The notes: generated by a model from the letters alone, not told the origin. Numbered from the stretch's first letter, positions 50,701 through 60,381 are shown. The stretch: 64,000 nt of DNA from an uncultured Gemmatimonadales bacterium (GCA_963798915.1 CAWCVB010000005.1:441291-505290); one strand, 5' to 3'. A program made the numbers and translations.

Positions 50701-52337
50701 GCGGCACGTCGTCACGCATCGCGGAAGAAGCCGAACGGCGTGCCCGTGCCGATGGCGTGGTGAAGTACACCAAGGGCCTCGAGTGGGCCGATGTGCCGGT
50801 GGAGTATGAAGACGGCACGAAGGGCACCATCCGGGTGGCACTCACCCGCGAGGATGAGAGCGCCGAGGAGGAAGAGCGCGAGGGCATCCAGGTGGTCGAT
50901 GCCAAGGATCCGAAGAAGATCATCAATCGCTTCCCGGTCCCGGAAGGCGCGCTGCTGCAGGTCAAGGAGGGCGATGAGGTCAAGCGCGCCGATCCGCGAT
51001 TCTCGGCGCCGGGCCAGGAACGGGGAACGATCCTCTATACCTGGGATCCGTATAACGACCCGAACATCATCAAGAACGACGGGGCGTTGCGGTGGAAGGA
51101 CCTGGTGCCCGGCGTCACGCTTCGCGAGGAGCTGGATGAAGGCACCGGCCTGCGCTCCATCGTGGTCCAGCCAGATCCCGACCGCGAGCTGCATCCATCG
51201 GTGCTGCTGTACATGCCGAACCGCAAGGATCCGCAGGAATACACGCTGGCCGAAGGCAGCCGGATCCTGCTGGGCTCGCCGTCGGACCAGATGAGCCGCG
51301 CCATGGATATTCCCGACAACGCGAATCCGTGGAGCACCAAGTTCGCGGTGGAAGAGTATCCGATCAACGAGGCGTGGCCGTCCAAGACCAAGAAGGAGAG
51401 CAAGGACAAGACGGTCTGGCTCTCGCCCGCGGTGAAGGTGCCGAAGGGCGTGACCATCACCAAGATTCCGCGCCAGGCCTACAAGACGCGCGACATCACC
51501 GGTGGCCTGCCGCGCATTGCCGAACTGTTCGAGGCGCGGCGGCCCAAGGATCCGGCCACCATCGCCGAGGTGGATGGCGTGGTGAAGTTCGGCGAGATCA
51601 AGCGCGGCAAGCGCGAGATCTTCGTCTACCCGCCGCAGGCAGAGGACGACGTGCCGGTCGAGCCGCGGCTGTACGAAGTGGCCGCCGGCAAGCACCTCCG
51701 GGTGCACGAGGGCGACAAGGTGCGCGCGGGCGACCGCCTCACTGAAGGCCCCGTGAACCCGCACGATATCCTGCTGATCAAGGGACCGCGGGCGGTGCAG
51801 GAATACCTTCTCAATGAAGTGCAGGAGGTCTACCGCCTGCAGGGAGTGCGCATCAGCGACAAGCACATTGGCACCATCGTGCGCCAGATGCTGCAGAAGG
51901 TGCGCGTCACCGATCCCGGCGACACCGACTTCCTGGAAGGGGAGACGGTGGACAAGATGACGTTCAAGGAAACCAATGAGCGGATCGAGCGCCGGAAGGA
52001 CGGCAACACACCGGCGGAGTTCGAGCCGGTGCTCCTGGGCATCACCAAGGCCTCGCTGACCACGCAGTCGTTCATCTCGGCGGCGTCATTCCAGGAGACC
52101 ACCCGGGTGCTGACCGATGCCGCCATCCGCGGGGCCAAGGACGACCTCCTGGGCCTCAAGGAGAACATCATCATCGGCCACCTGATTCCGGCCGGCAGCG
52201 GTATCTATCGCTACGCCGAAATCGACATCGAGCCGCCGGAAGGCTACGAAATGCCCGAGGTGATTCCCGAGGTCGAGGCCCCGGTGCCCGAACTCGGTGT
52301 TGCAGTCCCGGTCGGTGCGGGGGCGGAGGCGGAGTAG
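47756..52337 (+). CDS. rpoC: RNA polymerase beta' subunit, with a +1 frameshift at about 48221
   Basis: ORF 47756-48490 holds the N-terminal Zn finger; ORF 48123-52337 holds NADFDGD and the rest; deleting one base at 48220-48221 gives [18 protein letters not shown]. Confidence 0.97.
52191..52337 (+). repeat. rpoC 3'-end direct repeat, copy A (in gene)
   Basis: 147 nt colinear with 60235-60381. Confidence 0.95.
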
Positions 52338-52369
52338 CCGGCCGGCCCGCTTTCTGGCCCCTCGGCAGC

Positions 52370-52411
52370 ACGACAGCGGCGCACCGTACTCCGGTGCGCC
52401 GCTGTCGTTTT
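52370..52411 (+). terminator. Intrinsic terminator of rpoBC
   Basis: Perfect 17-bp stem acgacagcggcgcaccg/cggtgcgccgctgtcgt followed by a short T run. Confidence 0.75.
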
Positions 52412-52484
52412 CCCGTCCGTGGTTTGACGAGGGGCGTACGACGCTTCAGATTGGAGCCACTCTCTCCTGAGCCGGCGGAGCGCC

Positions 52485-53144
52485 GTGACCATTCCCTTCG
52501 AGCTTGAGCAAGTGCTGCGCGCCGGCAGTCCTGCAGATCGGGAGACTGCCTGGGCAGACCTGGTCGCGCGTCACACCCGGCTCTTCCTGGCGGTCGCCCG
52601 GTCATTCGGCGGCTCTCGGGACGAGGCAATGGAGCGGTACAGTTACATCATCGAGAAGTTGTACGAGAATGACTACCGGCGGCTCCGGGCATTCCAGCTC
52701 GATGGCGGCGCCCTGTTCTCCACGTGGCTCACGGTCACCGCGCGTCGTCTCTGTCTCGATCACTATCGTGCCCGTTACGGCCGTGCCCGACCCGCCCGTG
52801 ATCGCCAACAGGCTGATGCCCTCCGCTCGCTGCGCCGCCGCTTGCAGGATGCAACCGCGGTCGCCATTGAGCCTGACCTGCTCCCGGACGAGTCATCGCT
52901 CTCGGCCGAGAGCGAGGCCATCAGGCGGGAGCGCGACGAACGCCTGCAACTGGTGTTGGAGGCGCTCCCGGCCGGCGACCGCCTGCTTCTCCGCCTCAGG
53001 TTCGAGGACGATCTTTCCGCGTCCCGCATCGCCAGCGCGCTGGGGCTCCCCACGCCCTTTCATGTGTATCGACGGCTGAATGCCGTGCTGACCCGCCTTC
53101 GCGCGGCGCTGCAGTCGGGCGGCATCGACGGCAGTGCCGGCTGA
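52485..53144 (+). CDS. ECF-type sigma factor
   Basis: Region 2 FSTWL...ARRLCLDHYR; region 4 L...DRLLL.LRF..DLS...IA.ALG. Confidence 0.88.
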   Translation: MTIPFELEQVLRAGSPADRETAWADLVARHTRLFLAVARSFGGSRDEAMERYSYIIEKLYENDYRRLRAFQLDGGALFSTWLTVTARRLCLDHYRARYGRARPARDRQQADALRSLRRRLQDATAVAIEPDLLPDESSLSAESEAIRRERDERLQLVLEALPAGDRLLLRLRFEDDLSASRIASALGLPTPFHVYRRLNAVLTRLRAALQSGGIDGSAG

Positions 53145-53180
53145 AGCGGCCGCAATCTGCATGGAAATGACCGTGAAACA

Positions 53181-58729: not shown

Positions 58730-58783
58730 CTGATCCAGTTGCCAGGTTTTCTGACCACCCTTCCATTCCTACGGAGGATTGCC

Positions 58784-59548
58784 ATGCCTCGTTGTTCAGT
58801 GCCGTGCCTTCTGCTTCTTGGCGTGCTCGCTGGCGCATGCGTCGGGGACACGCCGACCGCTCCCGTGAACCTCAGGGCCGCCAAGGGTGGCGCCGGAGGT
58901 GGAGGGAGCAGCGACATGACAGTCACTTCGGTGGTGGCTGATGCCGACGCGAGCATAGCCCCAATGCTCCAGCTCCGAAGCGACGGACTGGGCGCTTACC
59001 AGAATTCCAGCTCGCTCAGCTCGATCATTCAGGGGATCGGCGCCTGGGTTCTGGATGTCAAGACTCCGCGCAATGCCACCCGGCAAGTGTATCTCGACTT
59101 CAGCCAGCCCGTGGCAGGCAGCGGACCCAATGGCGGCGCACCGATCGCGCTTCCGTCCGGCCTGTATCAGGTGAGGATCATCTCGAAATGCAATGCGTAC
59201 GGAACGACCATGCAGGACCTCGCACCCGGCGGGACGACAATCTGTCCGCTGCACATCGCATTCGATCACGATGGGGTTGGCTACGCGCTCCAGATGAATC
59301 CCCAGAGCGGTGACGCCGACGGATCCTATGCGGAAACGGAACCTGCCCGCATCACCTGCGTGACGCCAGCGTCGGGAGCCGGCAGTTGCACTGGATGGAC
59401 GCTTACCCCAACGGGAGTGCTACCGGACGGGACCGGGCTGGGGAACGTCGCCAAGTTGCTCAGGTACCAGACCAGCAAAGGGAAGACGACGAAGGTGGAG
59501 CAGGGAGATTTCCTCTTCTCGTTCGCGATTGCGGTGACCAGACCCTGA
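58784..59548 (+). CDS. Hypothetical lipoprotein (distant paralog)
   Basis: RBS GGAGG; LAGA-C; SDGL and terminal FSF.I.VT echo the previous gene. Confidence 0.8.
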   Translation: MPRCSVPCLLLLGVLAGACVGDTPTAPVNLRAAKGGAGGGGSSDMTVTSVVADADASIAPMLQLRSDGLGAYQNSSSLSSIIQGIGAWVLDVKTPRNATRQVYLDFSQPVAGSGPNGGAPIALPSGLYQVRIISKCNAYGTTMQDLAPGGTTICPLHIAFDHDGVGYALQMNPQSGDADGSYAETEPARITCVTPASGAGSCTGWTLTPTGVLPDGTGLGNVAKLLRYQTSKGKTTKVEQGDFLFSFAIAVTRP

Positions 59549-59626
59549 TCCCGCGGCGCGGGCTGCGCTCCCTGGACGGCGCGCCGCCCGTGCTGTCACG
59601 TTGCGCCCACTCGTCAGGAGGAACCC

Positions 59627-60163
59627 ATGCGGCAGCTCCTTGGCTCTCTCGCGCTTTCGGCACTCGTCACGGCTGGATGCGCCGACTCCATCTCTCCGGA
59701 GGCAACGCCCCAGGCCGCGTCTGCCCTGGCACTCGCGTCGGTCGGGAGTCCTGCAACCCGCGATGCGATGACGGACTATCTGGAATACACCACGACCCTG
59801 GGGGGGAAGGTTCTGGGCTGCGTGGGCGAGCCGGTCATCGTCACCTTCCGCTATACGACACGGTTGCAGCGCCTGACCGATGGAGCCGGTGGCTTCCACG
59901 GCATCTTCACGCTGGTCGACAAGGGAACGACGGGGGTGGGCGCGAGCACTGGTACCCTGTTCCTCATGCAGGAAGGCCAGTCGGAGAATATCCAGCAGCG
60001 TATCGACGGGTTCCCGGTGAGTTACACGGCGAACTTCATTCGCCGCTTCATCTCCCGTGGATCAGCGACCAACTTCCGGGTCCATAACCTGACGCATTTT
60101 ACGATTGATGCCTCGGGTGAGACCACTGTTGATTTTAGCAGCTCGGATGCGACCTGCCACTAA
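59627..60163 (+). CDS. Hypothetical lipoprotein
   Basis: RBS AGGAGG; VTAG-C; beta-rich with a Cys pair (CVGE ... terminal CH). Confidence 0.8.
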   Translation: MRQLLGSLALSALVTAGCADSISPEATPQAASALALASVGSPATRDAMTDYLEYTTTLGGKVLGCVGEPVIVTFRYTTRLQRLTDGAGGFHGIFTLVDKGTTGVGASTGTLFLMQEGQSENIQQRIDGFPVSYTANFIRRFISRGSATNFRVHNLTHFTIDASGETTVDFSSSDATCH

Positions 60164-60234
60164 GTCACCTTCGAGTAAGACCGGCTGGCCACATGCGCTT
60201 TCGGGAAAATCTCATCTACGGGCGCTTCGTCCTG

Positions 60235-60381
60235 GCCGGCAGCGGCATCTATCGCTACGCTGAAATCGATATCGAGCCGCCGGAAGGCTACGAGATGCCC
60301 GAGGTAATCCCTGAGGTCGAGGCCCCGGTGCCCGAACTCGGTGTTGCAGTCCCGGTCGGTGCGGGGGCAGCCGACGAGTAG
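60235..60381 (+). repeat. rpoC 3'-end direct repeat, copy B (orphan; inside the 62-aa ORF 60193-60381)
   Basis: Encodes [48 protein letters not shown], versus ...GAGAEAE in rpoC. Confidence 0.95.

Follow-up and report, generated by a model that had tools for sequence, protein, structure and literature searches.

The 64,000-nt stretch of DNA analyzed here (GCA_963798915.1, CAWCVB010000005.1:441291-505290; called the window in the following) comes from an uncultured Gemmatimonadales bacterium and carries rpoC, the gene of the β′ subunit, on its plus strand at 47756..52337 (NCBIfam TIGR02386, 1465.7 bits on 48123-52337). The 3′ end of this gene is found a second time behind a 7.85-kb insert. We refer to the end of rpoC itself as copy A (52145..52337, plus strand), to the insert as cassette 1 (52338-60188) and to the second end as copy B (60189..60381, plus strand). 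An older insert, island 2, follows at 60382..64000 and continues to ~64320 beyond the window, and behind it lies a third, short fragment of the same gene end, relic C. The order along the chromosome is accordingly copy A (intact), cassette 1, copy B (partly decayed), island 2, relic C (most decayed) and native neighbours. The genome is designated G000 and its 517-kb contig C5; positions past 64000 are window equivalents.

The alignment of 52191-52337 with 60235-60381 is gapless over 49 codons at an offset of 8044. Codons 1-45 differ at 8 third positions, all of them synonymous (8/8), at codons 46-47 copy A has EA where copy B has AD, and in-frame homology continues upstream, where 27/46 nt are identical between 52145-52190 and 60189-60234 (FRENLIYGRFVLAG is the peptide of copy B). 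The repeat had been reported in these terms in an original prediction made from the DNA alone, and realignment reproduced it exactly. A repeat search returned a single family of 193 nt with 84% identity, and a DNA search of the whole genome found copies A and B only (E 2.4e-56 for the second copy). With 34.0 synonymous and 101.0 non-synonymous sites in codons 1-45, a result of 8/8 synonymous differences would arise by chance under neutrality with P = 1.6e-5 to 4.9e-5 (transition bias 1 to 4); the synonymous-only differences support the earlier proposal that both copies were once working rpoC ends. As had also been proposed, each copy has a terminator of its own, a strong hairpin and a T-rich run 3′ of the stop codon: 52363..52415 behind copy A (plus strand, −40.9 kcal/mol, z −7.7, followed by GTTTT) and 60430..60484 behind copy B (plus strand, −38.3 kcal/mol, z −5.2, followed by CTTTCTT). 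Both are terminator-like by their structure; a simple terminator scan flags part of hairpin A only and not hairpin B. The TIGR02386 model ends at residue 1364 of 1404, thus the repeat mostly covers a lineage-specific tail of the protein.

Copy B is a mosaic. We divided copy A into segments I (52145-52190), II (52191-52268), III (52269-52324) and IV (52325-52337, including the stop codon) and copy B into the corresponding segments I′ (60189-60234, decayed), II (60235-60312), III (60313-60368) and IV (60369-60381). Segment I′ (46 nt) is 58% identical to its counterpart and has diverged near neutrally (pN 12.5/34, pS 6.5/11), and a 12-nt identical block marks its boundary to segment II. Within segment II (78 nt, 26 codons, 91% identity) copies A and B differ in 7 codons, all synonymous; a hand count from the codon table gave 10 codons by which A, and likewise 10 by which B, differs from the sister species G008. 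Segment III is identical in both copies (56 nt, 100%) and constitutes their longest identical run; the β′ part encoded there varies in sequence and length among the compared species. Segment IV (13 nt) shows 5 differences, and all similarity stops at the stop codon. At equal numbers of synonymous sites, a split of 7 versus 1 differences has a one-sided P of 0.035. When the 8 differences were polarized on 11 relatives the outcome was mixed: both A and B have private synonymous states (GCT, ATC and CCT of copy B occur in none of the 11), so that neither copy can be called ancestral. Together with the distance of segment II, these private states make segment II of copy B look like a working allele from another lineage, roughly as distant as the sister species. 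The signal of a functional allele from elsewhere is confined to the middle 78 nt, copy B being a mosaic whose three parts differ greatly in divergence.

A single duplication followed by drift does not yield this pattern; repeated recombination within the rpoC end does. A block might nevertheless have entered with a long duplication of the resident rpoC end, followed by replacement of part of the functional copy with the allele of a related strain and/or by conversion of A and B to one another. Nobusato et al. reportedly described this mode, insertion with long target duplication, in 2000. According to a later study (Furuta, Abe and Kobayashi 2010; PMC2853133), it concerns inserts of < 20 kb without mobility genes that are flanked by direct repeats of > 30 bp, with lengths of tens to hundreds of bp, the repeated sequence being single-copy in the empty-site genome. 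The 193-nt repeat, the 7.85-kb insert, its lack of mobility genes and the single-copy empty site in G008 (one copy in each of the 37 other relatives with a match, of 40) all resemble that situation; the 56 identical nt would fit recent conversion and the patchy synonymous divergence of rpoC, described below, would fit allele swapping. The process, however, was described for restriction-modification systems and predicts initially identical copies, whereas divergence here is far from uniform (58%, 91% and 100% identity): segment I′ is much more diverged than its neighbours II and III, a contrast that one duplication event fails to explain. Neutral drift would moreover be expected to have added non-synonymous changes to copy B, whose private states are absent from the 11 relatives. 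With the several extra steps it requires, we regard duplication in place as an unlikely origin.

Relic C was found when the last 78 β′ residues were searched against the whole genome by relaxed tblastn, which returned a third fragment at C5:505612-505686 (E 0.008); the suggestion to look past the window for more rpoC tails was therefore a fruitful one. Its DNA (69 nt) is ~80% identical to 52115-52183 (RIIRDEAHPGGKDSLLSLRENIVIGD) and is located at 64333-64400 (L077 2624-2691, that is G000:C5:505623-505690), a site that the rpoC genes of relatives match at 78-87%. The part corresponding to the last 45 codons cannot be recognized and, compared to G008, is ~119 nt shorter. A 73-aa open reading frame (ORF; L077 2562-2783, G000:C5:505561-505782) holds relic C in the β′ frame and is overlapped by a 211-aa ORF on the opposite strand; both lack a family match and are probably spurious.

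In the sister species, G008, which is 92% identical over the last 299 aa, the locus is seen without inserts: behind rpoC come a small ORF, a 194-aa ORF and an OEP-MFP-RND efflux operon. In G008 216 nt separate rpoC from DNA that is found in G000 from 64649 onwards; more generally, the DNA directly behind rpoC in G008 and in two further sister species (G001 and G002) corresponds to 64649-64882 with 81-84% identity. The efflux genes of G000 lie past the window end (C5:506493-512411, from ~65200), and ~12.3 kb separate its rpoC stop codon from the ancestral neighbour. Relic C lies ~250 nt before the native downstream DNA and the corresponding distance in G008 is 368 nt, a position that indicates an ancestral rpoC end left in place. 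The original prediction had noted that rpsL-rpsG-fusA, common behind rpoC, are absent. None of these genes turned up in the Pfam scans of ORFs, as had been stated, but their absence appears normal, since G008 has the small ORF and the efflux operon there instead. Island 2 has a G+C content of 0.60, the host one of 0.66, and its products are beta-propeller-like proteins and proteins of unknown kind. For its 411-aa gene the 40 relatives gave no orthologue and two matches of 28-32% identity. Judged by the base composition and this orphan gene of island 2, and by the scattered occurrence of the cassette-1 operon (see below), the inserts appear to be foreign or accessory DNA.

We read the repeats as scars: the 3′ end of rpoC would have received two inserts in turn, each with a replacement tail and each joined by host homologous recombination. 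We assign this reading a probability of roughly 50%. From an ancestral layout like that of G008, island 2 would have entered first, together with a working rpoC end and terminator, and the native end would have been pushed downstream to become relic C. Cassette 1 would then have entered likewise, stranding the end in use at that time as copy B. Copy A would accordingly be the rpoC end used at present and copy B a non-functional relic of a once-translated gene end. An intact A, a partly decayed B and a most decayed C stand in the order expected of two successive insertions that each brought or created a new working end. The joining, to which we give about even odds, would have used DNA of related Gemmatimonadaceae: the strongly conserved rpoC end would provide homology on the left, and on the right it would come either from a relic end carried after the cargo or from a circular intermediate in which one end is hybrid. 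Efficient RecA pairing needs a long identical stretch. By this route segment II would differ by synonymous changes only because it represents alleles of two working genes, the 56 nt would be identical because no other stretch is long enough for efficient RecA pairing, and segment I′ would have decayed because this part of the relic never returns into the gene. The original prediction had a cassette with a replacement end entering rpoC and displacing the old one, and both the sister species lacking the cassette at this site and the older third relic at the ancestral position agree with it. Displacement stands, but copy B would not be the original native end; it would have served between the two insertions.

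The distribution of rpoC ends was examined in relatives. Among G000 and 40 relatives (including the unpublished G023) 38/41 have a match to the rpoC end, and two copies occur in G000 only. In a wider set of 401 genomes of the family (including the unpublished G023, G258, G219, G209, G398, G157, G092 and G304) a match was obtained for 319, and 20, G000 included, have two or more. Inspection of the 19 others revealed a second copy on the rpoC contig only in G105, a member of another genus. There, on a single contig (L070, G105:C161:1-4200, minus strand, ~2490-3815), rpoC precedes an 80-aa ORF and a PemK/MazF-type toxin gene (Pfam 1.1e-14), behind which, 1.1 kb downstream, 207 nt repeat the rpoC end with 88% identity, three gaps and frameshifts. 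This uniformly diverged, frameshifted repeat around a toxin cassette fits long target duplication, as sketched above, especially well. The second rpoC-end contigs of G273 and G337 were rejected as scars, as they also share 1.5 kb of downstream DNA (80% and 64.5%) and thereby resemble another, related genome or else a paralogous region; the remaining multi-match genomes contain second rpoC copies, fragments at contig ends or matches with E > 1e-3. As the original prediction had suggested might be found in relatives, empty sites and different cargo both occur: G001 (L037, C125, 488-2458) and G002 (L036, C300, 644-2628) have ~2 kb of other DNA between rpoC and the native neighbour; that of G001 comprises a Uma2-family gene plus an ORF of 470 aa whose family is not known. 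No relic of an rpoC end was detected in these two inserts. The rpoC end is a hotspot that receives inserts of different kinds. Many contigs of metagenome-assembled genomes (MAGs) of the family start or end within the last 300 codons of rpoC (e.g. G001, G002, G127, G354 and G313); such breaks may reflect branching of the assembly graph at a conserved gene or variable downstream DNA.

Several observations weigh against two successive insertions by host recombination. The switch from decayed to conserved sequence in copy B lies at 52189/52190 and the homology of relic C is lost at ~52183-52202, both within ~20 nt around GGCCGGCAGCGG; a common breakpoint is expected from a site-specific recombinase and is not predicted by general recombination. 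Relic C is better kept to the left of this breakpoint (~80%) than to the right, which age-ordered decay does not predict either, and the reading leaves both facts unexplained. The inserts of G001 and G002 occupy the same site without a detectable duplicated end, so the duplication is not invariable, and a second copy on the same contig is found in only 2/319 genomes of the family with an rpoC match. Finally, the contig is unconfirmed by reads or a second assembly: the sole sequencing run found contains 0.06 of the sampled words and, at 85% likeness, yielded 13 small contig pieces, with no joint and none of them across a junction.

The common breakpoint invites a different explanation, namely an array formed by site-specific recombination at an attachment site in the rpoC 3′ end. 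Cassette 1 and island 2 would then be remnants without an integrase, or passengers mobilized in cis or trans, each attP would have carried a replacement gene end, and A, B and C would represent attL, an internal att and attR. The breakpoint region contains the palindrome CCGGCCGG, and the 56-nt identical block is placed between diverged arms. A precedent is found in e14 (and phage 21) in icd of E. coli, where the incoming DNA supplies a working gene end and leaves 163 bp of the old one stranded (PMC6379469). As at rpoC, the insert sits in the end of a housekeeping gene; repeats with an identical core (56 nt plus 12 nt) and an empty site (G008) are present in our case too. In contrast, e14 encodes its own integrase, excises precisely and is bordered by two copies, whereas here a recombinase was found neither in the blocks nor on the contig, three copies are nested and the cargo is a regulatory operon of chromosomal type. 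Another parallel is offered by the streptococcal arrays of integrative conjugative elements (ICEs), integrative mobilizable elements (IMEs) and cis-mobilizable elements (CIMEs) at gene 3′ ends, e.g. behind fda and tRNA-Lys. There tandem blocks stand behind one gene with att-like copies between them, CIMEs keep att sites but no recombination genes, and as a rule decay is most advanced at the greatest distance from the gene (PMC7563491). Three att-like copies without genes for recombination, conjugation or mobilization and the same order of decay are seen at rpoC. However, CIMEs are deletion derivatives of ICEs or IMEs, usually lie beside an integrase-bearing element and have short att cores, whereas at rpoC neither such a neighbour nor a remnant of one was detected, and the repeats are coding sequences of 150-190 nt with synonymous-only divergence.

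Searches for mobility genes did not favour the array. The 59 ORFs of at least 70 aa that overlap 52338-64000 gave no match to a recombinase or transposase in Pfam (59/59), in line with the earlier statement that neither lies between the copies; NCBIfam and PHROGs scans of 12 ORFs each revealed no recombinase, no tRNA gene and no Rfam family is present in the region, and no remnant of conjugation or mobilization genes was detected. The tyrosine-recombinase family PF00589 has 4 matches in the genome and 0 on contig C5. An integrase beyond the window, which had been suggested as worth seeking, was not found: the 8 ORFs up to the efflux operon gave an OEP match only. The array is further opposed by the nature of cassette 1, an ordinary regulatory operon found in at least six other contexts without flanking gene-end repeats, by the relic in G105, which shows no discontinuity at the supposed core, and by segment II, since in an untranslated attP arm the differences from rpoC should not be confined to synonymous ones. 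We therefore consider the array possible but rather doubtful. A self-encoded integrase is disfavoured by the failure to find one, by the ordinary chromosomal cargo and by the different starts of the relics (~52145 for B, ~52115 for C and ~100 codons before the stop codon in G105). The general type of this insertion scar is known already, and its target, the rpoC end, is new; three copies are nested in it and no recombinase was found.

Assembly errors deserve attention in a MAG of 17 contigs that is 84.8% complete. The rpoC gene itself contains an apparent frameshift of 1 nt at ~48220: the first 158 aa match G008 in another frame (47747-48220) and the remainder continues from 48222, apparently owing to one extra base relative to the G008 protein, in ...GTGCTCGTACTACTCG...; as the gene is essential, an assembly error is most likely. 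Base-level errors therefore exist, and one could suspect that two strains were joined or that a circular or alternative form was threaded in via the 56-nt block; a swap behind this block would give a cassette-free chromosome and a cassette circle. The junction of the last cassette gene (g7) with segments I′ and II of copy B is unique, which puts a second rpoC end behind the cassette in some molecule regardless of how the contig was joined. The longest identical run, 56 nt, falls short of the final word size that is usual for common metagenome assemblers. Relic C and G105 moreover show the same kind of scar independently. We regard an artefact as very unlikely.

Along rpoC (48123-52337) the synonymous codon divergence of G000 from G008 varies in patches, ranging from 0.13 to 0.34. 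Low values of 0.13-0.19 were observed at 48429-48900 and 51279-52000, with ~0.3 elsewhere. The pattern hints at recombination tracts within rpoC; constraint may explain part of it, as the same windows are low against other relatives.

Successive insertion with replacement tails can be taken one step further. The cargo blocks, each with a working gene end in front and a relic behind, might constitute an integrase-free mobile unit, a proposal we put forward only tentatively. Host RecA would loop a block out via the two repeats, or linear DNA would be taken up, and the block would re-insert in the rpoC end of any related cell, for which the conserved gene end would offer a universal landing pad. 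On its left side the relic would never come under selection and would decay; its right side would be refreshed with every hop. Such hops would produce the layers of copy B: an old piece, an allele of another lineage and a piece identical to the resident gene. If this is true, the locus records at least three hops.

Copy B contains an open 62-aa ORF with an ATG start (60193-60381), and the original prediction had offered as an alternative that it is expressed as a mimic of the β′ C-terminal tail, which could, for example, compete for a partner of the tail. The ORF directly follows an operon on the same strand and has a terminator-like hairpin behind it; its residues 15-59 are identical to β′. 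Inspection by eye found no GGAGG-like site in the 20 nt before it, which agrees with the earlier remark that a clear ribosome-binding site is missing and speaks against expression, as does the near-neutral decay of the first third, where the ATG is located. The ORF has no match to a Pfam or PHROGs family, no second genome in the family search has such an ORF, the sole other second copy on an rpoC contig found there being the frameshifted relic of G105, and the part shared with β′ mostly lies beyond the end of the rpoC model, in the species-variable tail. A function as a tail mimic is most improbable.

Cassette 1 has the G+C content of the host (0.656) and contains, behind the terminator and a promoter-like site, genes for an ECF-type sigma factor, an anti-sigma factor and a TPR-CHAT protein as well as four further ORFs that belong to no known family, all on the plus strand. 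The sigma factor (52485..53144) matches Pfam Sigma70_r2 (PF04542, 4.9e-7, above the cut-off) and TIGR02937 (NCBIfam, 2.3e-19, 69.6 bits versus a cut-off of 42.9); the region-4 models PF08281 and PF04545 match just below their curated cut-offs. The anti-sigma factor (53181..53786) has a zf-HC2 zinc finger (PF13490, 5.7e-9), so that a sigma factor with regions 2 and 4 only stands next to an anti-sigma gene, as in ECF sigma modules with a cognate anti-sigma factor. The order of sigma-70 region 2 and zf-HC2 anti-sigma factor is that of known modules of this kind; here it is linked to the TPR-CHAT protein and putative lipoproteins. The TPR-CHAT gene (53786..56704; CHAT 1.9e-50, TPR_12 7.9e-16) has an uncertain start, its frame being open from 53570. 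It is followed by g4 (56701..57768), with a lipoprotein-like N-terminus, no Pfam family and a weak NCBIfam match to a 'choice-of-anchor Z' repeat below the cut-off, by g5 (57779..58729), a distant paralogue of g4, by g6 (58739..59548), with a lipoprotein-like N-terminus and no known family, and by g7 (59627..60163), the last cassette gene, also with a lipoprotein-like N-terminus. A g7 homologue with 40% identity lies within the operon of G326; no close relative of g7 was confirmed among 167 pattern matches in genome contigs, metagenome contigs gave a single weak match (39% over 57 residues), and the three genomes of genus g46 revealed neither g6 nor g7. By eye we noticed a promoter-like site, TTGACG-N17-CAGATT, at 52420-52450 before the sigma gene, which a consensus scan did not flag. 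Alignments, again judged by eye, show TTGAC(G)-N17-(T/C)A(C/G)ATT before the ECF sigma gene in G000, G126 (L158 1118-1150) and G005 (L163 150-185).

CHAT orthologues with 47-61% identity occur in 8 other genomes of the 401 searched (G005, G126, G043, G326, G200, G226, G013 and G221); matches at E <= 1e-60, paralogues included, are found in 71/401, a tally that includes the unpublished G219. The order sigma, anti-sigma, CHAT is kept in 8/8 of these loci and a g4-like gene comes next in 7/8; in G013 the g4-like match is upstream of the sigma gene. One further genus has the operon behind rpoC, and six more genomes have it at other places. G126, of genus g46, has it directly behind rpoC with a similar terminator-promoter spacer, its contig ending inside g4; among five loci checked, one of them in the unpublished G258, the cassette was present in G126 alone. 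A further rpoC end stranded behind this cassette was sought and rejected: the best other match in G126 (C13:386-423, E 5.4e-4) is a chance similarity of alanine/proline-rich sequence in an unrelated ORF. In G005, which belongs to the genus of G000, DNA identity is 66% over 5.4 kb and no rpoC end was found in the 200 nt before the operon.

The flanks in G200, G326, G043, G221, G013 and G226 share nothing with one another outside the operon. No gene-end duplication surrounds it in G043, G200, G013 and G226, and the G326 flanks gave only a weak gapped match (score 39 versus a shuffle maximum of 33). Flank repeats in G221 were rejected as a gene-end duplication, being local repeats that bear hairpins: the operon is bracketed by imperfect ~80% repeats of 150-190 nt with a GGGAGGGACCGGGG hairpin motif (L169, C40: 3733-3925 and 12142-12421), the contig also has a cluster of additional copies close by, and another copy is located on contig C54, at ~11 kb from a paralogous CHAT gene. 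In G326 (L170, C1:58000-72000) we also observed an rpoC end at 5685-6474 with 94% identity over 33 residues, then 53% over 241, in an open frame of 122 aa; it looks like the result of frameshifts in a long-read assembly or like a damaged copy. The occurrence in varied contexts without flanking gene-end repeats suggests that the cassette-1 operon is a unit that has often changed place and that the duplicated end belongs to the rpoC site and not to the operon.

In annotation, neither the 62-aa ORF of copy B nor the 73-aa ORF that surrounds relic C should count as a gene; both should be labelled as relics. MAG contig breaks or second hits at the rpoC end need not signal contamination. This locus and the toxin cassette of G105 are cases of insertion for which no recombinase was found, and the layered mosaic of copy B provides a concrete, testable prediction for cargo spread by host recombination. 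Accessory DNA has repeatedly entered the genomes of Gemmatimonadaceae at the end of rpoC, a gene that ranks among the most conserved and essential ones of bacteria, and the stranded gene ends record the order in which the insertions took place.

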